Below are positions 1 to 48,835 of a stretch of 48,835 bases of DNA, one piece after another. The notes below the pieces were generated by a model. That model ran no database searches. It worked only from the letters and a program-made list of their open reading frames with translations, and had not been told where the DNA came from. A program made the translations under genes and the position numbers. The stretch is from the IMG/VR virus record IMGVR_UViG_2740892051_000004, positions 1 to 48,835 of that record; one strand, given 5' to 3'. This DNA is from a virus. Taxonomy: Duplodnaviria > Heunggongvirae > Uroviricota > Caudoviricetes. How positions within the stretch are numbered: position 1 is the stretch's first letter; the number at the start of each line of letters is the position of its first letter.

Positions 1-228
1 ATGAGCTTATTGCCTCGGGAAAACGCACCCCAAAAAAGATATAGACTTCTGAGAATATCAGAAGTGATTAATTTGACTGGCTTACCCAAGTCAACAATTT
101 ATCTAAAGATAAAGAATGATGAATTTCCGAACCAAGTTTCTATCGGTTCTCGTTCTGTTGCATGGGTGGAGCATGAAGTTAATGAATGGATAGAGAAGAA
201 TATTCTCAATAGAAAATTAAACTCCTAA
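1..228 (+). CDS. alpA: AlpA-family DNA-binding regulator (prophage CP4-57 AlpA-like)
   Basis: 75 aa; HTH core 'RLLRISEVINLTGLPKSTIY' and C-terminal 'VAWVEHEVNEWI' match the AlpA/Vis/Xis small winged-helix pattern. Confidence 0.75.
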   Translation: MSLLPRENAPQKRYRLLRISEVINLTGLPKSTIYLKIKNDEFPNQVSIGSRSVAWVEHEVNEWIEKNILNRKLNS

Positions 229-245
229 ATTGAGGTGGCAAATAT

Positions 246-1106
246 ATGGTTGACAATGTTTTTAAGAAGAAATTGGCATCAATTAAGAACGAACATGTGT
301 CGGTGTTAGATAGTTACAAAGTAAGATCATTTAAAGAGACTCATAGCGACACGGCCTGTATTGTGCGTATTATTGAAATATATTCACTGAATAAGCTGCG
401 AGCTAAAGGTGAAAAGCTGTATTCACTTACGGGGTTAACAGTACCTGATACGGAAACTGTGGCGAATGAGATCAACCTGCTCCTGAGCCGTTATGCCCAG
501 TTGTGTCGTCAGGAAGAGGAAGAGTTATCTTTCCGGCAGCGTGAAGTGACAAATGCGGAAGTTGCATGGAAAAGCACATTCTCAAAAAACGGCGTCAGTA
601 GCATTGCTGAAGCCAAAACGAATAAAATGGGGCATGCTGAACGAGCGGATGCTGAACGGTATTACCATCTGGCTGTTTCCCGGTTGAATGAACAACATAG
701 TCGATTGAGCACGATCAAGCTTTTGCCGGGAGTACTGGCCGATGAAGGAAACTACATTGGGAAGGGAATCGATAAGCGTTTACTGAATATATTTCCTCAA
801 TCCGGCCAGATCCCTGCTGATTTTATTTCTGTATTTAATGACAGTGACGTTGTCCGTGATATTAAATTTATTACTGATGCACTCAAGTCTTTATCTGATT
901 CCGTGAGTGAAATTATTAGTCGTTGTAGCGTTCCAACTGATCGTTATGTATTAAATAACGGTGGAATGGCAAGAGCTATGGCTTACAGGGAGTACTATCG
1001 AGCAGATAATTATGTATTACGTTCAGTCGTAAGTGACCGGGATTATGTTGAGCATGTAATGAAATACAATCTGGTTACTGAGTACAAAAATAAAATCTTT
1101 TCTTAA
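246..1106 (+). CDS. hypothetical protein; possibly capsid scaffold (GpO-like by position and size only)
   Basis: 286 aa ORF directly upstream of capsid-like gene in P2 O-N order; no recognisable motif. Confidence 0.45.
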   Translation: MVDNVFKKKLASIKNEHVSVLDSYKVRSFKETHSDTACIVRIIEIYSLNKLRAKGEKLYSLTGLTVPDTETVANEINLLLSRYAQLCRQEEEELSFRQREVTNAEVAWKSTFSKNGVSSIAEAKTNKMGHAERADAERYYHLAVSRLNEQHSRLSTIKLLPGVLADEGNYIGKGIDKRLLNIFPQSGQIPADFISVFNDSDVVRDIKFITDALKSLSDSVSEIISRCSVPTDRYVLNNGGMARAMAYREYYRADNYVLRSVVSDRDYVEHVMKYNLVTEYKNKIFS

Positions 1107-1128
1107 ATACTTAAAAAGGTGAAAAACT

Positions 1129-2133
1129 ATGTATGCCTTCAAAACTGAAAGGCCGGACGCAGCACGTCGTTATCATAATAAATTCGTCACTGGCACTAAC
1201 TATCAGGAAGAATCAAACAGACGCTTTGCATTAAGCGAACCTACTGAAAATATACTGCGTACCTCAATTCTGGAATCCGGGTGGCTTATTAAAAATATTA
1301 CCCTACGTGATGTTAACGCCGTGTCAGGTAATGCCGTCAATATTGGTGCCAGTGAACTGTATACCGGACGTGTGGATGGTGGCCGTTTCCACAAAAAAAT
1401 GGCAATCAATGGTACGGAGTTCTTTCTGACAGAGACGGATACCTGCGCCCGGATCAGCTATTCCGATATGTCTCATATTTACCATACCGGCGTGCCGGAT
1501 GAGTTTGAGAAAACGGTTGAGAGCTTTTTTGCCCAGGCATATGCGCTGGACATGCTGCGGGTCGGTTTCAACGGTGTGTCGATTGCAAATACTACAAACC
1601 CGGAAATCAATAAAAAAGGCGAGGATGTCAATATTGGCTGGCATGCACTGGCGAAAGCCTACGGGAACGGAAAGCAAATCATCTCTGAGCCTGTCACTCT
1701 GGGAGAGACTGGCACCTGGAAAAATATTGATGCTCTGGCCAACCATCTGATTACAGAGCTTATTGCTGAGCAGTTTCGTGAAGATCCTCGTCTGGTTGTA
1801 CTGGTTGGGGCAGAGCTGGCAGCACATCAACGCCTGAAGTTATTTAATGCCGCAGACCGCCCGTCTGATGTGAATGCGGCACAGATGGCTACAAGTTCTG
1901 TTGCTGGCCGCTTTGCGTTTATTCCCCCGTTTATGCCGGGTAAGCGTCTGGCAGTAACGACGCTGGATAATCTGCATATTTACACTCAGGCGATAACACG
2001 CTGGTTTCGTGCTGAGTTTGATGATGAAAGCAGTGAATACGTGCATTCCTACCTGCGCAATGAAGGTTATGCACTCGGTGAACCTGAACTGTACGCGGCT
2101 GTTGATGAGTGCACCCTGACGTTTGCGGATTGA
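1129..2133 (+). CDS. putative P2-family major capsid protein (GpN-like)
   Basis: 334 aa; segments 'GFNGV...NIGW...IDALA...DPRLVVLVGAELAAH' resemble recalled P2 GpN conserved blocks; needs HMM confirmation. Confidence 0.5.
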   Translation: MYAFKTERPDAARRYHNKFVTGTNYQEESNRRFALSEPTENILRTSILESGWLIKNITLRDVNAVSGNAVNIGASELYTGRVDGGRFHKKMAINGTEFFLTETDTCARISYSDMSHIYHTGVPDEFEKTVESFFAQAYALDMLRVGFNGVSIANTTNPEINKKGEDVNIGWHALAKAYGNGKQIISEPVTLGETGTWKNIDALANHLITELIAEQFREDPRLVVLVGAELAAHQRLKLFNAADRPSDVNAAQMATSSVAGRFAFIPPFMPGKRLAVTTLDNLHIYTQAITRWFRAEFDDESSEYVHSYLRNEGYALGEPELYAAVDECTLTFAD

Positions 2134-2147
2134 CTTAGCGACAGAAA

Positions 2148-2176
2148 GACCCGCTCAGAGGCGGGTCTCGTTTACA
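2148..2176 (+). terminator. rho-independent terminator after capsid-like gene
   Basis: GACCCGC-tcagag-GCGGGTC hairpin followed by TCGTTT, 15 nt after stop codon. Confidence 0.5.
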
Positions 2177-2271
2177 GCATCAGGAAAAATGAAGAACTAT
2201 TTTTAAGCAGAGGCTTAAGCATGCCAGCGTTAATTAATCCAGGCAATGATCAGTTTTCGGTTATAAATTTC

Positions 2272-2301
2272 TTGCCTCACCAGGAATGCGCGGGATATAG
2301 T
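2272..2301 (+). promoter_or_regulatory. candidate sigma70 promoter (P4 PLE-like) upstream of immunity region
   Basis: TTGCCT-N18-TATAGT upstream of seqA. Confidence 0.3.
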
Positions 2302-2332
2302 TTAAAGGTTGCCGCAAAATCGGCAGCCGGGC

Positions 2333-2356
2333 GTAGGAACCCGTGTTATCTGAAGG
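2333..2356 (+). promoter_or_regulatory. seqA-like target of CI immunity RNA
   Basis: GTAGGAA...TCTGAAGG; both arms exactly complementary to seqB (2510..2531). Confidence 0.5.
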
Positions 2357-2469
2357 CGATACTACACGCGCTAGGCGTGTTTTTTTGTGTCGCAGCTTTG
2401 ACTCACCTAAAATTTATGGTGTGGTGGCTGATTGTATTTTTTTATTTTTTACGCCACATCATCAGAATT

Positions 2470-2545
2470 ATGGTAGTCCAGGCGGGGCAGCTTTCGGGCT
2501 GGCCGGTATCCTTCAGAGCCGGTATTCCTACCCCCGTCTGGGCTA
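2470..2545 (+). ncRNA. P4-type CI immunity RNA (C4 antisense RNA-like) containing seqB; ends approximate
   Basis: seqB core CCTTCAGA-GCCGGTA-TTCCTAC at 2510..2531 is antiparallel-complementary to seqA and seqC; sits in a leader upstream of early ORFs as in P4. Confidence 0.45.
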
Positions 2546-2557
2546 CCACCCATGAGC

Positions 2558-2599
2558 GTAGGAACTCCGGTGGTAGCGTTACCCGCTATCTGAAGGAGG
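2558..2599 (+). promoter_or_regulatory. seqC-like target overlapping ribosome-binding site of first early ORF
   Basis: GTAGGAA...TCTGAAGG repeat of seqA, ending in AGGAGG 9 nt before ATG at 2608. Confidence 0.5.
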
Positions 2600-2607
2600 T
2601 TGCCATT

Positions 2608-2811
2608 ATGGCTACAGTCCCTGCTTTATCTCACCCTGAATTTACCTTTGTCTTTCTGGCTGTCCGCCGTACAGACCGTGATGCCCGTCCACGCCCTGTG
2701 CGTGTAATCGCAGAATGCGAGCATGCTGCACGCCTTAAACTTGCCACTGAATTTATCCTGAGCTTTGCTGCCCGTATCCCTGTGAAAAGAGCCGGGGAGG
2801 TGGTTGCATGA
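2608..2811 (+). CDS. hypothetical small early protein (satellite)
   Basis: 68-codon 3' part of track ORF 2221..2811 starting at internal ATG with AGGAGG RBS; upstream part of that ORF spans the RNA region. Confidence 0.5.
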   Translation: MATVPALSHPEFTFVFLAVRRTDRDARPRPVRVIAECEHAARLKLATEFILSFAARIPVKRAGEVVA

Positions 2812-3044
2812 AATCCATGAATTTTAAGCAAGGCTGCATATTGAGTGAACAGGGGGAGAGTCGTCTGTTACGGGCGGCACTGGCCAGTGAGTTTCTTGCA
2901 GAGGTCTTGTCCGTGCCCACAGTGAATGGAGCGAGAACTGTTTCAGCGGAAGGCGCTGCGGCTTTAGTGGCCTGTATTGCCGAACAACTGGATGGCGTTG
3001 TTAAGGAAACCAGCACAATTAAGGGAGTGATGCGCGATGAATAA
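2808..3044 (+). CDS. hypothetical protein (satellite early operon)
   Basis: 78 aa ORF, 4-nt overlap with flanking ORFs (translational coupling). Confidence 0.5.
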   Translation: MKSMNFKQGCILSEQGESRLLRAALASEFLAEVLSVPTVNGARTVSAEGAAALVACIAEQLDGVVKETSTIKGVMRDE

Positions 3045-3447
3045 TAATCAAAATTTAAAGGCGCATGCTTTACGAACAGCAGTCTTACGCTACTACATTG
3101 CTGATGCATTCATTTCCTTAATGGTGCGTGTTCATAATGAACCTGTTTATATTGAAGATGGCGAACGAATAGAACTCTCCCACGAAAAAGTGGTGAGTAA
3201 TATTATTTACCATATTGAAATGCCGTGGGTGAATGAGTTTGGGGCTGATGCTGGTTGCATACTGGCCGCAGAGAAACTGGAAAAAATGCTTAAACCAGGC
3301 TTTATGTCAGAAAATATTCGCCTGTCAGTTTTTGGTGTCACAGAGATGCGTGAGGTTTACCGGGATATTATTTTCGGAGCACCTGATGGCGAACTACCCG
3401 AAGGTTTTGAATTTGTGAAGCCGGAAGGTCAGGAGGTGCTGCTGTGA
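3037..3447 (+). CDS. hypothetical protein upstream of primase (position of P4 eps/orf151)
   Basis: 136 aa ORF overlapping primase start by 4 nt. Confidence 0.55.
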   Translation: MNNNQNLKAHALRTAVLRYYIADAFISLMVRVHNEPVYIEDGERIELSHEKVVSNIIYHIEMPWVNEFGADAGCILAAEKLEKMLKPGFMSENIRLSVFGVTEMREVYRDIIFGAPDGELPEGFEFVKPEGQEVLL

Positions 3448-6131
3448 AAACACCGTCTGTATCCACGATTTCCGGAGCTGCAATTGGGCGCTGGCCTTAT
3501 ATCCTGTCAGCATTAGGTATTAAAGTACCGTCCGCAGGACATCATGGGGCTTGCCCTGCCTGTGGTGGAAAAGATCGTTTTCGACTGGACGATAAAGCGG
3601 GGCGAGGGACGTGGTTTTGTAATCAGTGCGGTCATGGCGATGGTCTTGATCTGGTTCGTCTGGTGACAGGAAGAAAGATAAAAGAAGTCGCCGGGATGGT
3701 ATCTGAGGCGCTTGCATTACCAGAAATACAGGAGAAGCCCGCATTGCCAGCCAGGAAAAAGGCCGCAGGAAAAGAAGCGGGCGCGGAGCGATATACCAGA
3801 CTCAGACAGCAGTCCTGCAATGGTGAGCCGGTCTATCTGACAAATAAGAGCTTACACGGGTATTCACTTCCCTTGCTGTCACAGCCTTTGAATCTGGCCG
3901 GAATAACATTTTCCACCGGTTCATTACTGCTGCCTTTGACGGATATTTCCGGGAATATTACTGGTGGCCAGCTTATCAATCCTGACGGGGATAAAAGTCT
4001 GCTGCCCGGTAGCCAGCTGTCTGGCGCATTCATTGCCCTGACCGATATACCCGCTGAAACACCTGAACAGGTGATTATCACTGAGGGTTTTGCCACGGCG
4101 CTTACCGTCAGTCTGCTGACTGAAGGATGGATCGTGGCGGCTGTCGCTGCCACCAATTTACTGAAGGTGACGGAGCAGATCCGAAAACGCTGGCCGGAAA
4201 CCCGGATCATTCTGGCCGGAGATAATGATCTGGCTGACGGCAAAGAAAACACCGGGCGTATTCAGGCAGAGAAAGCCGCCAAAGCGGTGGATGGCTGGGT
4301 AACGCTCCCTCCGGTACGCCATAAGGCTGACTGGGATGATTATCGGCAGGAAGTGGGGAAAGAACGGGCGAGAGATGCCTTTCGTGAAGAAATGACGCTG
4401 CATGGCAAAGGGCAGACCCGTTTACCAGAAGGGTTCCGGCTGACAAAAGAATATTTGTGGTACGACAAGCTGGTTAATAAGTCTGATGGTGATACAGAGA
4501 TACGTAATATCAAAATTTGCAGTCCGTTGCGGGTGACGGCAATCACCAGTGATGCTGATGGAAGTAATTACGGGCGTTTGCTGGAATGGGAAGATACCAA
4601 CGGAAACAGCCGTAAATGGGCAATGCCGATGGAGATGCTGGGCGGTAGCGGGGAAGAACTGCGCCGCGTTCTGCTGGTTAACGGGCTTTCTTACATCAAC
4701 ATTAACGGCATGGCCAGAGCATTCCTGATGGAATATATCTCGCTGTGTAAACCGGACAGAAAAGTAACCTGTGTGAATAAAACTGGCTGGCACGGCGGGG
4801 TTTACGTTCTCCAGGATGAAGTGATAGGGCGCGAAGCCCAGTCAGTCATCTTACAAACATCGAGTGTGCAGGGGCGTGATTTTCGTGTCAGCGGCACATC
4901 AGAGGGCTGGCGTGAAAATATAGGCCGTTATTGCATAAAGAATGCCCGTCTTGCCTTTGCGGTGAGTCTGGCATTTGCTGCCCCCCTTCTGAAACTGGTT
5001 GGTATCGGCGGTGGAGGTTATCACCTCAAAGGGGAATCCACAGACGGTAAAACCACGACGATGAAAGTGGCTGCATCAGTATGTGGTGGAACAGATTTCT
5101 GGCATACGTGGCGGGCGACGGGGAATGCCTTAGAAGGAACGGCGAGCCGCCGCAATGATGCCACGCTGATGCTGGATGAAATCCGGGAGGTTGACGGCAG
5201 GGAGGCGGGAAATATCGCTTATATGCTGGCTAACGGGCAGGGCAAAGCCAGAGCCAGAACAGATGGTTCGGTAAGGGAAACCAACCGCTGGAATCTGTTG
5301 TTTCTGTCTACCGGGGAACTGTCACTGGTAGAGCATGCGGCAAGCGCCGGGGAACGTACGTATGCCGGGGTTGAGGTCAGAATGATCCAGATCCCAAGCG
5401 ATTCGGGCAAGTATGGCGTGTTTGAAGAACTTCATGGCTTCAGTAGCGGGAAAACCCTGGCTGAGCATCTTGAGCAGCACGTAGCGCATTATCATGGTGC
5501 ACCATTCCGCGACTGGCTGTATTGCCTGACCGCTGATCTGCCGGAACTGACCAGTCAGGCGAAAGCCTTATTGAAAGAGTATACCCGAAGGCTGACGCCG
5601 GAAAATGCCGGGAATCAGGTTGGCCGGGCTGTTACCCGTTTTGCTCTGGTTGCGATGGCCGGGGAGCTGGCCACAAAAGCGGGCATCACAGGATGGCCGG
5701 AGGGAGAGGCCTTTCGTGCCGCTCAAAGCTGTCTGGCTGCATGGATGGCTGACCGGGGCCATACAGCTAATCAGGAAGATAAAGCGGCACTTGAACAGGT
5801 TCGGGACTTCATGACGCGTAATCAGTTCAGTCGGTTTGCTGACTGGAATGACGACAGGAACCGGCCTGTTTCAATGATGGGATTCAGAAAAGTCGATAAA
5901 GGAGACAACGTGACAGAGCCGGTTGTGACGTTCTACGTTCTCCCGTCAGGCTGGAAGGAGATCTGTAAGGGATTTGACTCGCGTAAGGTGGCCAGGTTGT
6001 GTGTGGACGCGGGCTGGCTGAAACCCGGTGAAGATGGCCGGACGCAAAACAGCATTCGCCTGCCAGAAATAGGGCTTAAACGTGTGTACCAGTTCAATAC
6101 ACAGGTACTGGGAAGCGCTGAACCTGAGTGA
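3444..6131 (+). CDS. P4 alpha-type primase-helicase
   Basis: 895 aa; N-terminal zinc ribbon CPACGG...CNQCGH, TOPRIM-like 'ITEGF...ILAGDNDL', Walker A 'GESTDGKTT'. Confidence 0.9.
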   Translation: MKTPSVSTISGAAIGRWPYILSALGIKVPSAGHHGACPACGGKDRFRLDDKAGRGTWFCNQCGHGDGLDLVRLVTGRKIKEVAGMVSEALALPEIQEKPALPARKKAAGKEAGAERYTRLRQQSCNGEPVYLTNKSLHGYSLPLLSQPLNLAGITFSTGSLLLPLTDISGNITGGQLINPDGDKSLLPGSQLSGAFIALTDIPAETPEQVIITEGFATALTVSLLTEGWIVAAVAATNLLKVTEQIRKRWPETRIILAGDNDLADGKENTGRIQAEKAAKAVDGWVTLPPVRHKADWDDYRQEVGKERARDAFREEMTLHGKGQTRLPEGFRLTKEYLWYDKLVNKSDGDTEIRNIKICSPLRVTAITSDADGSNYGRLLEWEDTNGNSRKWAMPMEMLGGSGEELRRVLLVNGLSYININGMARAFLMEYISLCKPDRKVTCVNKTGWHGGVYVLQDEVIGREAQSVILQTSSVQGRDFRVSGTSEGWRENIGRYCIKNARLAFAVSLAFAAPLLKLVGIGGGGYHLKGESTDGKTTTMKVAASVCGGTDFWHTWRATGNALEGTASRRNDATLMLDEIREVDGREAGNIAYMLANGQGKARARTDGSVRETNRWNLLFLSTGELSLVEHAASAGERTYAGVEVRMIQIPSDSGKYGVFEELHGFSSGKTLAEHLEQHVAHYHGAPFRDWLYCLTADLPELTSQAKALLKEYTRRLTPENAGNQVGRAVTRFALVAMAGELATKAGITGWPEGEAFRAAQSCLAAWMADRGHTANQEDKAALEQVRDFMTRNQFSRFADWNDDRNRPVSMMGFRKVDKGDNVTEPVVTFYVLPSGWKEICKGFDSRKVARLCVDAGWLKPGEDGRTQNSIRLPEIGLKRVYQFNTQVLGSAEPE

Positions 6132-6156
6132 TTATCGCGTGAGTCTTATTTTTATG

Positions 6157-6347
6157 AGGTAACACTGGTAACAGAGGTAACACCCGTTACTGATGCGGTT
6201 CTTCAGTGTTACCAGTCAAAAATACTGACTGGTAACAGAGGTAACAAAAAATGGTGTGTTACCACGCGTTACCTCTTGATTTTGCTAACTGGTAACAGAT
6301 TAAATCCTTTTAAATCAATAGCGTTACACGTGTTACCAGTGTTACAC
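6157..6347 (+). repeat. iteron array (satellite ori/crr-like)
   Basis: More than 12 copies of GGTAACA / TGTTACC in both orientations immediately after primase stop. Confidence 0.6.
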
Positions 6348-6413: not shown

Positions 6414-6686
6414 ATGAAGATGATGAGAATGTACTGCCCCACATGTCAGGCAGTAGCACGGATAGGTAAAACAAACAGGAAACACCCACAACTGTACGAT
6501 GTGTACTGCTATTGCTCTAATGTGGAGTGCGGTCACTCGTTTGTGATGAATGTTGCTTTCTCCCATTCCGTTAGTCCAAGCGCGCTGAACGGGCAGGGAA
6601 GGGTTAAAGAGCTGATTGATGCAATTCCACCCGAGGAACGGGAAAAGGCTTTAAAGTTGCTGCTGGCTGCGCAAAAGAATGGGTAA
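6414..6686 (+). CDS. Ogr/Delta-family zinc-finger late transcription activator
   Basis: 90 aa; 'CPTCQ...16 aa...CYCSNVECGH' C4 zinc finger as in P2 Ogr / P4 Delta. Confidence 0.7.
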   Translation: MKMMRMYCPTCQAVARIGKTNRKHPQLYDVYCYCSNVECGHSFVMNVAFSHSVSPSALNGQGRVKELIDAIPPEEREKALKLLLAAQKNG

Positions 6687-7365
6687 AGTATGCGTCGGGA
6701 ATGGCCGATCTGTTCCCGGAACCTGAACACAGGATTTCAGTTTATACGGTCATAAAATTATTATTTTTCAACTGGTTATCTTCTTCATGTTTCACAAACC
6801 TTCATAAAATCACACACCTAAAATTAATTATCCATTTAATATCATAGAGTTGCGTATTCAGGCCATAGATTCGACGGACAGTAAAACTGAAAAAAAATGA
6901 ATTTCTTTTCATTCTTTTCAGTTCCTGTATCGCAGTACATCTCGAGGACTGGCACGGACTGGCGGTATCGTTTGTAAAAAATCCAGGCTGAAAATTTTTA
7001 GTGATATGAAAACCGCAGGCGGGTGCGGTGTAGTGCCGTTTTGGTCTGTCGAGCGTATATTTTCCTTTTTCACGATTGCTGCATATCAAAACGAATGTGC
7101 AGATATCAGGCCGTGTCAAACCGTGAATCGTGGAGCCTAAATGCCCAAACTACGTTTGTAGACCTAGCTAGGGGAAGGTTTCCACATATACTGCTACCTA
7201 TCTTCCAGTCGCTGGTGAGGATCAAGGTAAGCTAACTGGTGAACAAGAAAAGTACTTTCGTATCTTGCGTACTCGTTTTTTTTGATTAGTATGTACAGGT
7301 AGTAACTGGATGGTGAGAATTCGTCATAACTTATCAAATTGCATGATGTTTATAGAGTATGAGTA

Positions 7366-8247
7366 ATGAGTCATAATAAAAAGGAATATGCTAAATTTTT
7401 CCGTCGCCCCATTTTTTCATCCTTAGCAAAAGGTAAGGATATTTCGGATTTATTTGGGAGTTTTGATTCTTACTGCTATGAAACACTGTTTTCAAACAAT
7501 GATAATAATGAACATGAGATTTCACTAAGGGATTTATTTACATCATTATATGATTTTTTGCGTCTGAATTATAGAAATGAATATGTTTATAAGACAGCAC
7601 TTGTCAATAAAATAATATTCGGTAAGCACAGCCCAAAAACAAGTTCGTCGTCCATAGAGTTACCAATTAAAAACTCTATAGTGGATGTTGCGGTGTTTAA
7701 TGGTACGTCTACAGCTTACGAGATTAAGACAGAGTATGATTCACCAAAAAGGTTGATTACTCAAGCCCCTGATTATTTGGATGTTTTTGATAAAGTGTAT
7801 ATAGTTACACATCCAGAGTATGCAAGTAAATATTGTGCTTTAAATCTCCCCAGAGTGGGAGTTATGGTTTTGAATAAAAAAGATCAATTGAGTGTCATTA
7901 AGGAGGCAGATTCAAATATTGATTATATTAAAAGTGACAGCTTGTTTTCAGTTCTTAGAAAGGAAGAGTTCTTAGCTATAATAGAAGATTACACTTCAAC
8001 TAAAATAAATATGCCTAACGGATTGGTTTATGAATATTGTAAAGAGATATTCATGCAGATGCCATTAAACATAGCAAATAAATACTTTATCTCTGCTATG
8101 AAAAAAAGATGTAACGATAAAGTTTTTTTGGATTATATTTATTCTCTTCCAGCATGTTTACGTGTTTTAGGTTATGCAACACCATTATCAAGAAAGCAAA
8201 AAGAATTCATCATGAATTTGATGGATGTAAAAATTAAAATTTGTTGA
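7366..8247 (+). CDS. PD-(D/E)xK nuclease-like protein, first gene of AT-rich cargo cassette (candidate defense)
   Basis: 293 aa; 'SIVDVAVFNGTSTAYEIKTEY' gives D...E-x-K catalytic signature; Lys/Asn/Ile-rich, strongly AT-rich DNA. Confidence 0.7.
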   Translation: MSHNKKEYAKFFRRPIFSSLAKGKDISDLFGSFDSYCYETLFSNNDNNEHEISLRDLFTSLYDFLRLNYRNEYVYKTALVNKIIFGKHSPKTSSSSIELPIKNSIVDVAVFNGTSTAYEIKTEYDSPKRLITQAPDYLDVFDKVYIVTHPEYASKYCALNLPRVGVMVLNKKDQLSVIKEADSNIDYIKSDSLFSVLRKEEFLAIIEDYTSTKINMPNGLVYEYCKEIFMQMPLNIANKYFISAMKKRCNDKVFLDYIYSLPACLRVLGYATPLSRKQKEFIMNLMDVKIKIC

Positions 8248-8268
8248 TATCCTCAGGAGTTGTAAGTT

Positions 8269-9219
8269 ATGTATAGCCCATATTTGTATGCGAGAAGTAC
8301 AGAGTTATTATGCCTTAGGGACCTCGTTGCGAAGGGAGTTAGCCTAAATGGTCTGCTACCAATTTTAGAACCAATTAACGTCAATACGAGAAATTTATTA
8401 ACATGTTTAAATGTTTGGAATTCTGACATAATTGTTATCCTTAATCCTTATCAGGAAGATTTTTCTTCACACAATAACGTCTTAACTTTAAATCAAAATT
8501 TATCAAGTGTATTAACAAATAAAAATAATATCATCTCTGGATATCTTATTCAGCCCAATACAACGATTAATGATATTAATAATTGGTTGAATGCTAACTT
8601 AAATAGACGAGTTGCACTTCTATATGATAATCCATCATTATCCAACTCTGATATTCAGTTGTTGGCGACAAATCAATTGATTAGTTATCATGTTGTTTTA
8701 AATAATAAAATGCTTCCTAATCAGTGCGCTCTTCTTCCTTTGTCGAAGTTAATTATTATTAGCGATAACTTTAGAAAGTTAGCAAAAAATGCTGATTATA
8801 ATGGGCCGGAACTTTTCACGCACGCACATCAATTCGTGGGACAAAATTACTTAGGATTTGGCGATTATACAATTACTGGCCAGGTACTAGATCTTGGAGG
8901 TGGTCAACCTTCTGCTGTTGCCGCACATTTGGTGTTCAAGAATTTACAAGCGAATACAGTTTGGATTCGTCATTTTGTATCAAGCAACACGCAACGAGGA
9001 AGTTCAAATGTTACTGCAAAATTTTTAGATGTTTCAGATCAAATTACAAATCTTGTTCCCCAACATCCAACCCAGTTTGGCAGCAACATTGGTCTTAACT
9101 ATTATTATTACAATAGTCAACCAACTGTAAGGCATTTCCCTGGGTTGCCAAAAAACAAACAGTATCAAATTACTCACCATATTTGTTTCATGCTGGATTT
9201 AATAGCAGGTCGTATTTAA
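8269..9219 (+). CDS. hypothetical protein, second gene of cargo cassette (partner of nuclease-like protein)
   Basis: 316 aa, 21 nt after upstream gene, same AT-rich composition; N-terminus 'MYSPYLYARSTELLCLRDL'; 3' end overlaps integrase stop by 21 bp. Confidence 0.7.
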   Translation: MYSPYLYARSTELLCLRDLVAKGVSLNGLLPILEPINVNTRNLLTCLNVWNSDIIVILNPYQEDFSSHNNVLTLNQNLSSVLTNKNNIISGYLIQPNTTINDINNWLNANLNRRVALLYDNPSLSNSDIQLLATNQLISYHVVLNNKMLPNQCALLPLSKLIIISDNFRKLAKNADYNGPELFTHAHQFVGQNYLGFGDYTITGQVLDLGGGQPSAVAAHLVFKNLQANTVWIRHFVSSNTQRGSSNVTAKFLDVSDQITNLVPQHPTQFGSNIGLNYYYYNSQPTVRHFPGLPKNKQYQITHHICFMLDLIAGRI

Positions 9220-10374
9220 TAAGCTAGCGTACCATTCCATCATTACTTGTCGATCTTTAATATATTGCGCATGATTGTAAGTACCTCGAATAGAGTTCTT
9301 ATCAACATGCGCAAGCTGCATTTCAATCCAGGCACTTTCAAACCCATGCTCATGCAAGATGGTGCTCATGGTATGCCTGAAACCGTGACCCGTTAACCGA
9401 CCGTGATAACCCAGTAGTTTTATCACTTTGTTGATGCTGGCTTCGCTCATTGGTTTACTGACGTCATTCCGGCCAGGGAAAACGAGGCTGTAATTCCCTG
9501 TTATTTCTTGCAGCTTTTTCAGGATATTGATCGCCTGAGTTGATAACGGAACCAGATGGGGGCGGCGTTTCTTCATCCGTTCTTTGGGGATCTCCCATAA
9601 GGCATTATCTAAATCAAACTCAGCCCATTCCGCTGCACGTAGTTCAATTGTTCGCACGCCTGTTAGCATCAACAGCTGCGTGGCGTATTTGGTAACTAAA
9701 CTGCCCTGATAGTTATCCAGAGCATTAACGAACTCGGGCAACTCGCTTTCAGTCAGGAACGGGAAGTGTTGGGTTTTAGGTTTGTTGAGTGCGATAGCTA
9801 AATCGGGTGCAAAATTATACTTTGCTCTACCAGTGGCAACAGCATAACGAAGCACTTCACCACAGCGGCGGCGGATCTTACTGGTTTGCTCTAGCGCACC
9901 TCTTTTCTCTATTTTTTGCAGGACGGTTAGCAGTTCTAATGGTTCAATCTGCTCAATTGGGCGCTGGCCGATAAAAGGAAAAATATCCTTTTCCATACAA
10001 TTGAGAACCTCTTTTGCATAACCCTCTGACCAGGTGGCTTTTTTCGATGAGTGCCATTCTCTGGCCACAGACTCAAAGCTGTTCTCATGCGCGAACTGCA
10101 AAGCAATCTTATCTGCTTTTCTGGCTTCACTTGGGTTTATCCCGTTGGCTAACATCGAACGCGCTTCATCACGTTTGGTACGTGCCTGTGCCAACGACAC
10201 ATCGCCATATACGCCAAAGGAAATCATCTTAGGCTTACCTGCAAAGCGATAGCGAAAACGCCAGCCTTTACTGCCCGCTGTGTCGATCAGGAGTGATAGC
10301 CCCATACCATCGTTAAGCGTATAGGGTTTGTCCTTCGGTTTTGCTCTTTTTATTTGGATGTCAGATAGCAGCAT
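9199..10374 (-). CDS. int: tyrosine integrase, P4 family with arm-type N-terminal domain
   Basis: Start set at internal Met 'MLLSDIQIKRAKPK'; C-terminal catalytic 'HGFRHT...LAHVD...RGTYNHAQY'. Confidence 0.9.
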   Translation of the reverse strand: MLLSDIQIKRAKPKDKPYTLNDGMGLSLLIDTAGSKGWRFRYRFAGKPKMISFGVYGDVSLAQARTKRDEARSMLANGINPSEARKADKIALQFAHENSFESVAREWHSSKKATWSEGYAKEVLNCMEKDIFPFIGQRPIEQIEPLELLTVLQKIEKRGALEQTSKIRRRCGEVLRYAVATGRAKYNFAPDLAIALNKPKTQHFPFLTESELPEFVNALDNYQGSLVTKYATQLLMLTGVRTIELRAAEWAEFDLDNALWEIPKERMKKRRPHLVPLSTQAINILKKLQEITGNYSLVFPGRNDVSKPMSEASINKVIKLLGYHGRLTGHGFRHTMSTILHEHGFESAWIEMQLAHVDKNSIRGTYNHAQYIKDRQVMMEWYASLLNTTCY

Positions 10375-10622
10375 GTGTATAGAAAAAAGATCGAACTCAG
10401 TTATACACAATGTTATACGCAAAGATGTATAGATTCCATTAGAAATAATGGTACTTTGCTGGACGAGTATAAGGAGATGATATCAGTTAAAACAGTGAGT
10501 TATGGAATTAATTGAACTTAGTGAGAAGTGTTCATGGTGTCCCCTGCAGACATCTACTTGGCGCGGCAGGGGATTGATTGGAATGGTGTTTTTTAGATGT
10601 GAAAAATATTTTACCCGCTATT

Positions 10623-11417: not shown

Positions 11418-12427
11418 TTCGCCTCCTGCGGCGGTTCTGGTAGCGGCATCCAGTGGGTTACATTGCGGCTCTGCGTTTCGAAGAACTCCTCACCATTGCG
11501 GACGACATCAAAAAACTCACCGTCTCGATATTGCGCATAAAGAACGAATGCACCATCACATAAAATAATTACGTGCTGACCATCATCAGGCATTCGCTGA
11601 CTACAGCTTATCCAACCATCCGGAGTTACCGGATAGTTGCCATTCACAAGGTCAGCTCGAACATATAGTGTGTCATCATGGTGCTGATTGTGGCTGCACC
11701 ACGTTAATTCGCTTAACTCGCCATCTTCTGGCCATACTCCAGCTGTTTGCAGCCAGATATGGGCTGGCGCATCTTGGCAAGGTGTATTAACTGGCAACTT
11801 GTAAGTTTGGCTTACAGGTTCAGCACCATGAAGCATGGCCTTTTTGGTGGCGTCACCGAAATGGTCTACCATATCGAGGTTTTGCTCTGTATGATTGCCA
11901 TCCTGAGCAGTAGGCGTGTTCCGGTGATTATTCCATGAACCAACTTCGTCCAGTTGTTCTGAATTACAGAGCAACTTAAGCATTGCTGCGCGGCACTGGT
12001 TGAAGCCAATCGCCCATGCGGATGCCAGAGCAATGTCGTCTTCCGTGATTTCCTCTGGCACATCTTCCCAGCCGACTACTTCCGGCACAGATACCGGCGC
12101 TGGCTGCGGTAACTTTGGTGCTGTCAGTGATTCCAGTTCTGCGATTTTCTGCTCTGCATTTGTCGCCAAAGCAAGCTGCTTCCCAGCAACCACCTGCCAC
12201 GCTGATGATTCCTGTTTCCACTTATCCAACTCATCCAGTAGTGCAAGCACGTTTTCTGGTCCGGTCAGAAATTTGAAGGCGTTGAGCGCATCAATATCCA
12301 CACCGTAATCTTTAAGTTCCTGTTCACTTAACAAATCGTCATCATATGGCAACATTAACAGGCGTTCCATTGCTGGAATTGCACGTTCTGCCGCCTCACG
12401 CAGTCCCTGATAGTCAATCTTGCTCAC
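11414..12427 (-). CDS. Ea22-like / DUF551-type early protein
   Basis: 337 aa; C-terminal 'GWISCSQRMPDDGQHVIIL' block typical of lambdoid Ea22/DUF551 proteins; position between xis and recombination genes. Confidence 0.55.
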   Translation of the reverse strand: MSKIDYQGLREAAERAIPAMERLLMLPYDDDLLSEQELKDYGVDIDALNAFKFLTGPENVLALLDELDKWKQESSAWQVVAGKQLALATNAEQKIAELESLTAPKLPQPAPVSVPEVVGWEDVPEEITEDDIALASAWAIGFNQCRAAMLKLLCNSEQLDEVGSWNNHRNTPTAQDGNHTEQNLDMVDHFGDATKKAMLHGAEPVSQTYKLPVNTPCQDAPAHIWLQTAGVWPEDGELSELTWCSHNQHHDDTLYVRADLVNGNYPVTPDGWISCSQRMPDDGQHVIILCDGAFVLYAQYRDGEFFDVVRNGEEFFETQSRNVTHWMPLPEPPQEAK

Positions 12428-26053: not shown

Positions 26054-26128
26054 GGGTCAGTCGTATAAAGGTCATTACGGAAGGCTGTTAACCTTCTTAT
26101 CGTGGTTCGAGTCCACGCTGTCCCGCCA
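26054..26128 (+). tRNA. tRNA, anticodon GTT (Asn), hand-folded
   Basis: Acceptor stem with one mismatch, D-loop GG, anticodon loop CTGTTAA, T-arm CGTGG-TTCGAGT-CCACG, 3' CCA encoded. Confidence 0.55.
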
Positions 26129-26133
26129 AACAT

Positions 26134-26209
26134 GCTGGTTTAGCTCCAATGGTAGAGCAGTCGCCTTGTAAGCGAATGGGTAGCGGTTCAAGTCCGTTAA
26201 CCAGCACCA
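26134..26209 (+). tRNA. tRNA-Thr (anticodon TGT), hand-folded
   Basis: Acceptor GCTGGTT/AACCAGC, D-arm GCTC-CAATGGT-AGAGC, anticodon loop CTTGTAA, T-loop TTCAAGT, CCA encoded. Confidence 0.65.
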
Positions 26210-47677: not shown

Positions 47678-48835
47678 TCACTCCACCTTTTCATCAAGCC
47701 AGTCCGCCCACCATTGCATCATTTCTCTGCGCTTATCGAGATACTGAGCATGGTTGTAAATTCCACGTACAGATCCGCCGTTGGCATGTGCCAGTTGCAC
47801 TTCAATGGCGTCGGCAGGCCATTCGTGCTCGTTCATAATCGTGCTGAATTCATGCCTGAATCCGTGACCGCTTTCCAGCCCCTCATAGCCGATTTGTTTG
47901 ATCACAAGCAATACCGCGTTCTCGCAGATTGGTTTCTTCTTATCGTTGCGCCCGGCAAAAACAAACTCTGAGACTGGTTTGGTGATTGAGCTTAGCGTAG
48001 TAAGAAGTTCAACCACCTGGTCTGACATAGGAACCACATGAATTTTGCGTCCCTTCATCACACTGGCGTCGATGGTGATAATCCTGTTTTCAAAATCGAC
48101 GTTCTTCCATTGCATGGAGCGAAGCTCTTTCGTTCTTAGGGCTGTGTAGCGTAAAACTTTGGTCGCAATGAGCGATACGATACTTCCTGAAAATGTTGCC
48201 AGTGCTTTGTTGAATGCCGGGATCTGGTCTGCAGGAAGAAACGGGAAGTTCTTCTTGCGGTATCCCTTCATGGCGTCAGCAAGGTCAGGTGCCGGGTTAT
48301 ATTTAGCCCTACCAGTAACAATAGCGTAACGAAAAACCTCGCCGCATCTTCTGCGGGCTTTGTTGGCTCGCTCCATTGCACCGCGATCTTCAAATCTGCG
48401 GATTACTTCCAGCAGTTGCATCGGCTCAATATCCTGAATCTCAAGACCGCCGATGATGGGTAAAATGTCGTCATCAAACATTTTGGCAAGTTCAGTTGCA
48501 TAGCCTACTGACCAGACTTGCTTCTTGTGCTCGTACCATTCCTTGTAAATCGCACTAAATGAATTGTTGTTAGACGAAGCCTTTTTCGCCTTTACCGGAT
48601 CGATGCCAACCGAGATGTCTTTCCTCGCAGTCCATGCCTTATCCCTTGCTTCCTGCAAAGTCATAAGCGGATATTTTCCGACGGTCAGGATTTTCTCCTT
48701 ACCGTCAATCTTGTAGCGAAGCTGCCATACCTTTTTCCCTGACACAGGGACATAAAGGTACAGGCCATTACCATCGAGAAGGCGGTATGGTTTTTCTTTT
48801 GGCTTTGCTGCTTCAATCTGCTTAACGGTGAGCAT
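47678..48835 (-). CDS. int: tyrosine integrase, P4 family (second copy); start codon at window edge
   Basis: 385 aa; paralogous to 9199..10374 ('RRRCGEVFRYAIVTGRAKYNPAPDLA', 'HGFRHE', 'RGIYNHAQY'). Confidence 0.9.
   Translation of the reverse strand: MLTVKQIEAAKPKEKPYRLLDGNGLYLYVPVSGKKVWQLRYKIDGKEKILTVGKYPLMTLQEARDKAWTARKDISVGIDPVKAKKASSNNNSFSAIYKEWYEHKKQVWSVGYATELAKMFDDDILPIIGGLEIQDIEPMQLLEVIRRFEDRGAMERANKARRRCGEVFRYAIVTGRAKYNPAPDLADAMKGYRKKNFPFLPADQIPAFNKALATFSGSIVSLIATKVLRYTALRTKELRSMQWKNVDFENRIITIDASVMKGRKIHVVPMSDQVVELLTTLSSITKPVSEFVFAGRNDKKKPICENAVLLVIKQIGYEGLESGHGFRHEFSTIMNEHEWPADAIEVQLAHANGGSVRGIYNHAQYLDKRREMMQWWADWLDEKVE

Follow-up and report, generated by a model that had tools for sequence, protein, structure and literature searches.

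The characterised satellites of the P4 type all redirect the capsids of their helper phages with the proteins Sid and Psu, and the question raised by the locus described here is what takes their place in a P4-type satellite that encodes neither of them and instead carries a capsid gene of its own. The locus lies at the beginning of a DNA stretch of 48,835 nucleotides from a virus of the Caudoviricetes (IMG/VR record IMGVR_UViG_2740892051_000004), in the following termed the window, and consists of two adjacent open reading frames (ORFs):

246..1106, + strand: ORF286, a conserved protein of 286 amino acids, predicted to be all-helical, representing a new family and the constant partner of the satellite capsid protein; proposed as an assembly or size-determining partner
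1129..2133, + strand: full-length major capsid protein (MCP) of the P2 family, predicted HK97 fold, member of a satellite clade, 334 amino acids (Pfam, PHROG and structure matches)

Our answer, to which we assign a probability of roughly 60%, is that these two ORFs are the capsid module of a P4-type satellite of about 11.1 kb that exploits peduoviruses related to Cronobacter phage ESSI-2, and that the satellite MCP and ORF286 together build small capsids. Capsid-based hijacking is the best reading on comparative evidence; the redirection of capsid size is what we infer beyond it.

The ORF at 1129..2133 is unambiguously a P2-family MCP, far beyond chance. Its product matches the Pfam family Phage_cap_P2 (PF05125) with an E value of 9.5e-67 and 225.8 bits (cutoff 27) over profile positions 16-326 of 327, and PHROG 70 ('major head protein') with an E value of 1.8e-86. 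Among solved capsid proteins, its sequence matches those of phiRSA1 (7oz4, E 3.6e-21) and P2 (gpN, 7jw1, E 2.7e-16). The AlphaFold model (AF2; predicted local distance difference test score, pLDDT, 73.6; predicted template modelling score, pTM, 0.77) finds its best Foldseek match in gpN of the P4 procapsid (7jw1; E 6e-20, template modelling score 0.64), and also matches 7oz4 (E 4e-18). The resemblance to P2 GpN that a first-pass annotation had noticed from the letters alone is therefore borne out by both the profile search and the predicted fold. RefSeq uses the name 'P2 family phage major capsid protein' for this gene in hundreds of E. coli genomes, and 'hypothetical protein' for the ORF at 246..1106.

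Identity of the satellite MCP to P2 gpN is about 25%, and 47-49% to the MCPs of Escherichia phages ESSI2_ev015 and ev239 and of Cronobacter phage ESSI-2. The alignment shows the satellite MCP to be collinear with those of the helpers, and the internal deletions relative to the helper protein for which the first-pass annotation had suggested a search are not present in the satellite protein. A segment of 10 residues of P2 gpN (172-181, LQKYRNEAPA), located directly before the Sid-binding 'sir loop', is absent from the ESSI-2-like and the satellite MCPs. It was considered as a satellite-specific deletion and rejected as such, since it separates P2 from ESSI-2-like phages and satellites alike; its absence might have a bearing on why Sid-type satellites are not seen with ESSI-2-like helpers. 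The residues that discriminate satellite from helper MCPs number only 13 and show no clear clustering. The N-terminal arm of the satellite proteins carries the motif P-x-A-x-x-(Y/F)-H-x-(K/N)-F, which is absent from the helper MCPs; in shells of the HK97 type, this arm is the part that meets the scaffold. The residue aligned with Phe31 of P2 gpN is invariant in all nine MCPs aligned. P2 gpO cleaves gpN after Phe31 (PMC7552001), and the invariant residue is only indirect evidence that the satellite MCP might assemble into a shell and be cleaved by gpO.

ORF286 stands where P2 has its gene O, encoding the protease and scaffold GpO, and the first-pass annotation had accordingly pointed to the O-N order of P2. 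Such an ORF does exist at this position, and its length (286 amino acids, compared with 284 for GpO) would fit a diverged scaffold and protease of the GpO type. Its descent from GpO did not stand up to closer analysis and, being refuted as homology at the available sensitivity, appears very improbable. No Pfam model, that of GpO (PF05929) included, matches ORF286 at E<0.1, a BLASTP comparison with the scaffold of ev015, which represents the closest helper type, gave nothing credible (E 1.4 over 14 residues), and tblastn revealed no similarity either. A protease domain of the type of P2 gpO (Ser107) was not found, the predicted model being entirely alpha-helical, and the genuine GpO-derived gene of related satellites, described below, is a separate ORF downstream and not upstream of the MCP gene. 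To judge from these comparisons and from the model, ORF286 is not a homologue of GpO and belongs to a new all-helical family, so that its agreement with the O-N order in position and length is fortuitous. A C-terminal motif that seemed to be common to helper GpO and to the ORF286 homologues of different satellites (collectively ORF~285) was rejected, as both ends are merely basic.

The AF2 model of ORF286 is compact and confident (pLDDT 86.9, pTM 0.81), and fold searches with it returned only generic helical-hairpin matches. The ORF286 family gave a probability of <1% with both Sid and Psu in hhalign, and neither its sequence nor its fold matched any of the known size-redirecting factors. There are 105 homologues in Enterobacteriaceae, none of them named and none with a Pfam domain, and an exhaustive profile search of 1.84 billion representatives yielded 53 matches only, nearly all of 276-311 amino acids. 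The ORF~285 proteins of different satellites share 17-50% identity, yet they are homologous (hhalign probability 98-100%).

The ORF286-MCP pair is present in 450 of 5426 complete E. coli genomes (~8%). The 120 closest relatives of the MCP (49-100% identity) come from Escherichia, Salmonella, Enterobacter, Cronobacter, Kosakonia, Yersinia, Serratia, Rahnella, Pectobacterium, Dickeya, Xenorhabdus, Providencia and Proteus, and wherever the region upstream of the MCP gene is available the ORF~285-MCP pair is found, in satellites of about 25 species of Enterobacterales. All seven contexts inspected by hand show an island of 10-11 kb with ORF~285 directly upstream of the MCP gene, a primase, Ogr/Delta, cargo and an integrase; other backbones, in which both the primase (DUF5906) and the integrase differ, contain the pair as well. 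A scan of species-representative genomes gave 65 loci, which fall into 28 satellite loci and 37 loci of ESSI-2-like phages. Of the satellite loci, 21 have ORF~285 immediately before the MCP gene, and in the other seven the contig starts at or inside that gene, so that the upstream region is not covered; almost all of the 28 have a primase and Ogr, and none has portal, terminase or sheath genes. GpO is encoded at full length in all 37 phage loci, and proteins of portal, terminase and sheath as well as Ogr in almost all of them, two being incomplete short contigs; ORF~285 or a primase is found in none. Apart from the MCP, nothing in the capsid module is as constant as ORF~285, which is therefore the obvious candidate for an assembly organiser or a recruiter of the protease; its role as scaffold or size determinant is inferred from this pattern.

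In a neighbour-joining tree, 31 satellite MCPs form a single clade (99 of 100 bootstrap replicates) nested among the MCPs of ESSI-2-like phages, so that, on phylogenetic grounds, the satellite MCP is one captured once from an ESSI-2-like phage. Within the satellites, the proportion of nonsynonymous differences (pN 0.10-0.35) is far below that of synonymous ones (pS 0.69-0.83, saturated), and the protein has therefore been kept functional since this single old capture. The isolation of a single structural gene from all other head genes and its generic RefSeq annotation might also suggest a decaying remnant of a P2-like prophage without current function. This is hardly credible for an ORF that has stayed intact in ~450 genomes of E. 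coli and in ~25 other species, evolves with pN far below pS, belongs to a monophyletic clade of conserved synteny and has no pseudogenes of further head or tail proteins beside it. An enterobacterial satellite or ESSI-2-like phage genes with up to 98-99% identity to ev015 also turn up in assemblies assigned to Vagococcus sp. WN89Y, 'Bacillota bacterium' and 'Bacillales bacterium'; these records are probably contaminated or mis-binned.

Satellites outside the Enterobacteriaceae possess, directly after the MCP gene, a gene for a GpO homologue of 169-177 amino acids in which the C-terminal ~100 residues are missing. Three residues are invariant in satellites, helpers and P2, namely D19, H48 and S96 (ev015 numbering); they are taken as a putative catalytic triad, with S96 counted as the equivalent of Ser107 of P2. 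Residues 195-284 of P2 gpO constitute the internal scaffolding domain (PMC7552001), and since the GpO of the relatives keeps the protease without this domain, the scaffolding role must come from elsewhere. The Enterobacteriaceae, including the satellite of the window, form a subclade of the MCP tree (100 of 100 bootstrap replicates) in which the protease gene has been lost, and would presumably rely on the GpO of the helper.

These data also bear on a different use of the capsid protein, namely that it acts, like Ccm of SaPIbov5, as a minority subunit which co-assembles with the helper MCP in pentamers or specific hexamers, alters the curvature of the shell and poisons helper-sized capsids, with ORF286 serving elsewhere, for example in helper interference or regulation. 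Ccm occupies the pentamers of small capsids (PMC8569155), 97 alignment columns are identical in satellite and helper MCPs, so that contacts within mixed capsomers are conceivable, and the E. coli lineage needs the helper GpO in any case. On the other hand, satellite and ESSI-2-like phage MCPs are only 43-56% identical across the set, with the scaffold-contacting N-terminal arm as the most diverged part, and the strict linkage to ORF~285 together with the private protease of the relatives suggests an independent assembly pathway and not one invading subunit. We consider such co-assembly unlikely, but the least unlikely of the alternatives to a shell built by the satellite MCP and ORF286.

The element to which the module belongs comprises the first 10.55 kb of the window and is a genomic island of E. 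coli. In strain SA186 the same island, of ~11.1 kb, is located between dsdC and a tRNA-Arg gene (argW), and 17 nt from the 3' end of the tRNA are directly repeated at its two borders. In the window its parts other than the two ORFs above, which follow alpA, and a 78-amino-acid ORF between the Ash and DUF5375 genes are, in order:

1..228, + strand: alpA/vis-type regulator, first gene of the alpA-ORF286-MCP unit (Pfam Phage_AlpA, E 5.2e-20; 46% to P4 Vis/ORF88)
2148..2167, + strand: G+C-rich hairpin just after the MCP stop codon, read from the sequence; possible end of the alpA-ORF286-MCP unit
2221..2811, + strand: ORF of the Ash (helper-derepression) family, Icd-like in RefSeq (Pfam Phage_ASH, E 3.1e-32)
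2308..2553, + strand: P4-type RNA immunity region, with an isrK-like leader and its terminator (2308-2385) and the C4/CI antisense RNA (2466-2553)
3037..3447, + strand: DUF5375 protein similar to P4 ORF106 (PHROG 5991, E 8e-38; homologues carry PF17345, and P4 ORF106 is annotated as DUF5375)
3444..6131, + strand: primase-helicase (zinc ribbon, Toprim, DUF927) similar to P4 alpha (38% to alpha residues 4-311)
6155..6345, no strand assigned: iteron array of GGTAACA-type repeats in both orientations, adjoining the primase gene; presumed replication origin
6414..6686, + strand: Ogr/Delta late-gene activator (Pfam Ogr_Delta, E 5e-14; 52% to ESSI2_ev015 Ogr, E 8.6e-31)
6883..7045, + strand: cohesive-end (cos) region of ESSI-2-like peduoviruses, with CTGAAA repeats and the core GCAGGCGGGTGCGGTGTAGTGCCGTTTT
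7366..9219, + strand: variable cargo slot, here sce7726/sce7725 (RefSeq names; similar to P4 cII; G+C 0.32-0.36)
9199..10422, - strand: tyrosine integrase similar to P4 Int (40%)
10536..10550, + strand: partial 3' end of tRNA-Arg (argW), TGGTGTCCCCTGCAG, the integrase-side boundary of the satellite by comparison with the intact tRNA-Arg and attachment (att) repeat of strain SA186, and at the same time the junction with the neighbouring prophage

The earlier classification of the element as a P4-type satellite is confirmed by alpA/vis, the CI/C4 RNA, Ash, DUF5375, the primase, Ogr/Delta and the integrase. The absence of sid and psu had likewise been recognised correctly: tblastn with P4 Sid, P4 Psu and P2 GpO gave no match at E<=1 anywhere in the window, and with ev015 GpO three chance-level matches (best E 0.097), none of them in ORF286 or the capsid module. 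Of the seven P4 core genes used by SatelliteFinder (int, psu, delta, sid, alpA and ash, together with alpha; PMC13586616), five are present within ~11 kb, sid and psu being the absent ones. The island also has the gene set, size and origin arrangement described for Gram-negative phage-inducible chromosomal islands (PICIs), that is int, alpA, a primase with adjacent origin and about 10-15 kb (PMC6092414); portal, terminase, sheath or tail genes were not found in it. The RNA immunity region matches the Rfam families RF01394 (68.9 bits) and RF01695 (81.1 bits) and shares 71% nucleotide identity with the cI region of P4. The Ash ORF of 196 amino acids overlaps both RNAs of this region, and its true coding extent is doubtful because the Ash domain spans residues 26-141 only. 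In SA186, the att repeat and the promoter region of alpA have ~15 tandem copies of the hexamer CCCAGC between them (11640-11725), and in some E. coli strains (AR_0081, 884) IS1A or ISEc23 has inserted into the satellite, in part at positions in or next to the ORF286-MCP region, so that some copies are being inactivated.

The genes of the alpA-ORF286-MCP unit are separated by 17 and 22 nt. The hairpin at 2148..2167 was not called in a terminator scan, its T tract being poor. A promoter-like site, the terminated isrK-like leader and the C4/CI RNA precede the Ash and primase genes. In P4, vis is transcribed from the late promoter PLL, which lies upstream of the immunity region, and by analogy the capsid module would lie outside the early operon controlled by the RNA immunity system. 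A canonical Ogr box (TGT-N12-ACA) is present 73 nt upstream of alpA in E. coli, outside the window (strain SA186); it was dropped as evidence of late control, as five relatives do not conserve it and the head promoter region of ev015 lacks it.

The identity of the helper is indicated by the cos region. The non-coding block of 160 nt at 6883-7045 is ~70% identical in satellites of Enterobacter, Atlantibacter, Salmonella, Yersinia and Providencia (six satellites compared, from E. coli to Providencia) and has an invariant core. In ESSI-2, ev015, ev040, ev129 and Yersinia phage YenM_324, whose genomes are linear, the matching sequence lies at the very termini. The ESSI-2 record ends with GCAG followed by GCGGGTGCGGTGTAG and starts with GCGGGTGCGGTGTAG followed by TGCC (TGCCGTTTT); the presence of GCGGGTGCGGTGTAG at both ends implies a 15-nt terminal repeat that marks the cohesive end. 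In the satellite, the 28-mer GCAGGCGGGTGCGGTGTAGTGCCGTTTT, which corresponds to the joined ends of ESSI-2, is present without a mismatch and has the same CTGAAA repeats before it. The 19-nt cohesive end of P2 is absent from the satellite even with three mismatches allowed. Similarly, the satellite Ogr is barely similar to P4 Delta, in contrast to its 52% identity to Ogr of ev015. As cos, the closest MCPs and Ogr all point to ESSI-2-like phages, the likely helper is probably an ESSI-2-like peduovirus and not P2 itself. ESSI-2 and ev015-type phages are small peduoviruses (28.8-30.9 kb; genera Quadragintavirus and Seongnamvirus), and the ratio of satellite to helper genome, 11.1 kb to 28.8-30.9 kb, is 0.36-0.39, compared with 0.35 for P4 and P2. 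Satellite and ESSI-2-like prophage occur together in five assemblies (Brenneria populi, Siccibacter colletis, Ca. Erwinia dacicola and two metagenome-assembled genomes). A 7.8-kb contig with the cos block, recorded as 'Salmonella phage S.Kent 1-2-1', was considered as a packaged satellite and rejected, as it encodes no satellite proteins.

The cargo slot beside cos holds, in the window, an sce7726 protein related to P4 cII (PADLOC 'cll' match, E 1.2e-18), and since relatives carry retron Ec48, Kiwa, an HATPase gene pair and others at the same position, it behaves like the defence hotspot of P4. Given such cargo, the capsid protein and its partner could themselves be an interference or defence device, a decoy that blocks assembly of helper or competitor capsids or feeds a sensor, while the satellite is packaged as multimers in normal helper capsids; EcCICFT073 encodes a capsid homologue and yet uses full-size capsids (PMC6092414, PMC6893505). 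We regard this as improbable. Multimers would fit the helper head poorly, three copies (33.3 kb) amounting to 108-116% and two to ~72-77% of the helper genome; the ORF286-MCP pair is located in the conserved core next to alpA and not in the variable slot; and the private protease of the relatives and the invariant cleavage-aligned residue point to real capsid maturation.

If the two ORFs are indeed a capsid-building module, the course of events may be pictured as follows. In the presence of a helper, the alpA-ORF286-MCP unit would be expressed, and the satellite MCP and ORF286, the latter acting as scaffold or size determinant, would assemble on the helper portal into small procapsids, probably of triangulation number T=4, suited to a genome of ~11 kb. 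The MCP would be processed at its conserved basic-x-Phe site, in the relatives by their own protease-only GpO and in the E. coli lineage by that of the helper. The helper terminase would then recognise the satellite copy of the helper cos and package the satellite, and helper head-completion proteins, tails and lysis functions would finish the particle. A more far-reaching version, which we put forward tentatively and rate below an even chance, holds that these elements represent an undescribed lineage of Enterobacterales satellites and the missing intermediate between P4 and the capsid-forming PICIs (cf-PICIs), having a shell of their own MCP and a helical scaffold (ORF286), using portal, terminase and tails of the helper and, in the relatives, maturing the shell with the protease-only GpO.

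Several observations weigh against the proposed capsid module. ORF286 is without detectable similarity to any scaffold, and its compact, confident model is unlike the extended shape of typical scaffolds. With the protease gene lacking, the module of the E. coli lineage is not self-sufficient, and ORF286 and the MCP can be assigned late expression only tentatively, since the Ogr box upstream of alpA is present in E. coli only. Complete E. coli genomes contain the satellite ~15 times more often than an ESSI-2-like prophage (about 445-450 versus 29-31). The prevalence in E. coli is itself largely due to clonal spread and tells little about current mobility, 421 of the 450 copies being at least 99% identical and many of the matches listed belonging to sequence type 131 (ST131). 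Finally, a search of IMG/VR for virion-derived satellite contigs found none, the matches being provirus calls of ~50 kb from genomes.

The window is probably such a provirus call as well, in which the satellite and a neighbouring P22-like prophage were fused into one 'virus'. The P22-like prophage occupies positions 10551-48835, its terminase-portal-scaffold-coat block being 95-96% identical to those of Sf101, CUS-3, Kapi1 and vB_EcoP-720R6, and its integrase gene is located at 47678-48835. It sits in argW in tandem with the satellite, with the 15-nt tRNA remnant between the two elements, and the intact tRNA-Arg gene therefore lies outside the window. Genes for tRNA-Asn (GTT) and tRNA-Thr (TGT) are found inside this prophage (26054-26209). 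In several ~50-kb proviruses that IMG/VR derives from isolate genomes, ORF286 occupies precisely positions 246-1103.

If the proposed function is correct, the satellite would offer a tractable E. coli system for redirection from T=7 to T=4 by a capsid homologue, the open mechanism of the Pasteurella multocida island PmCI172, and would document one stage in the transition from satellites that steal capsids to satellites that build them. Defence genes (retron Ec48, Kiwa, cII-like) belong to the cargo of the family, which occupies argW in many complete E. coli genomes, with many ST131 isolates among the strains listed; the identity of the helper therefore matters for how defence genes move. As the candidate helpers (ESSI2_ev series) are named phage records, experimental work would be feasible if isolates exist.

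Targeted literature searches, which covered few subscription journals, gave no published description of the ORF286-MCP satellite family; surveys of P4-like elements and a review of capsid piracy describe the overlap of these elements with phages as very small and mention no capsid gene. The closest known system is P4 with its helper P2. P4 encodes vis, CI RNA, epsilon, ORF106 (DUF5375), alpha, int and cII, the last belonging to the sce7726 family, and shares with the present satellite the size of ~11 kb, a tRNA-integrating integrase of the P4 type, vis/alpA, the CI/C4 RNA, an Ash-family protein, DUF5375, an alpha-type primase, Ogr/Delta, a helper-type cos beside a slot for defence cargo, and a genome with roughly a third of the helper's length. 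The present satellite differs in that it has no sid or psu, the capsid gene and ORF286 being located next to alpA instead, in the C-terminal part of its primase, which is DUF927, and in its cos, which is ESSI-2-like, that of P2 being absent.

Satellite capsid genes as such are not without precedent, as Ccm, PmCI172 and the cf-PICIs demonstrate. Ccm of SaPIbov5 (Staphylococcus aureus, helper phi12) is a satellite-encoded HK97-fold homologue of the helper capsid protein which is responsible for small capsids of a cos-packaged element (PMC8569155). The satellite MCP likewise has 47-48% identity to the MCPs of ESSI-2 and ev015, the phages whose cos the satellite carries. In contrast, SaPIbov5 is a Gram-positive PICI with a siphovirus helper, a prolate-to-isometric shift, Ccm in pentamers only and neither a conserved partner gene nor a private protease, and Ccm ranks 39th among the fold matches of the present MCP. 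PmCI172 and EcCICFT073 (c1499) are Gram-negative int-alpA-primase islands with a capsid homologue (PMC6092414, PMC6893505) and are likened to the present satellite by description only. PmCI172 forms small isometric heads on contractile tails by a mechanism that its authors call undetermined (PMC6092414, PMC6893505). Its helper is Mu-like and that of EcCICFT073 lambdoid, whereas a peduovirus is proposed here, and EcCICFT073 is packaged in full-size capsids.

SaPI1 CpmB, SaPIpT1028 Rcm and TcaP of PLE, an element resembling phage-inducible chromosomal islands, are small or multi-helical capsid binders that change capsid size (PMC12409344, PMC10945586), as is proposed for ORF286; they act on the capsid protein of the helper, whereas ORF286 travels with that of the satellite. 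The cf-PICIs also build capsids of satellite-encoded protein, and their capsid genes form clades separate from those of phage homologues. They encode the head and packaging functions in full (MCP, portal, protease, connectors, TerS, TerL) and take only tails, whereas the present family has only the MCP, plus the protease in relatives, so that portal, terminase and tails must come from the helper. Compared with all of these systems, the features that look new are a P4 backbone in which a captured MCP and a novel partner protein stand in for Sid and Psu, a scaffold-less protease in some members of the family, and helpers of the ESSI-2 type.

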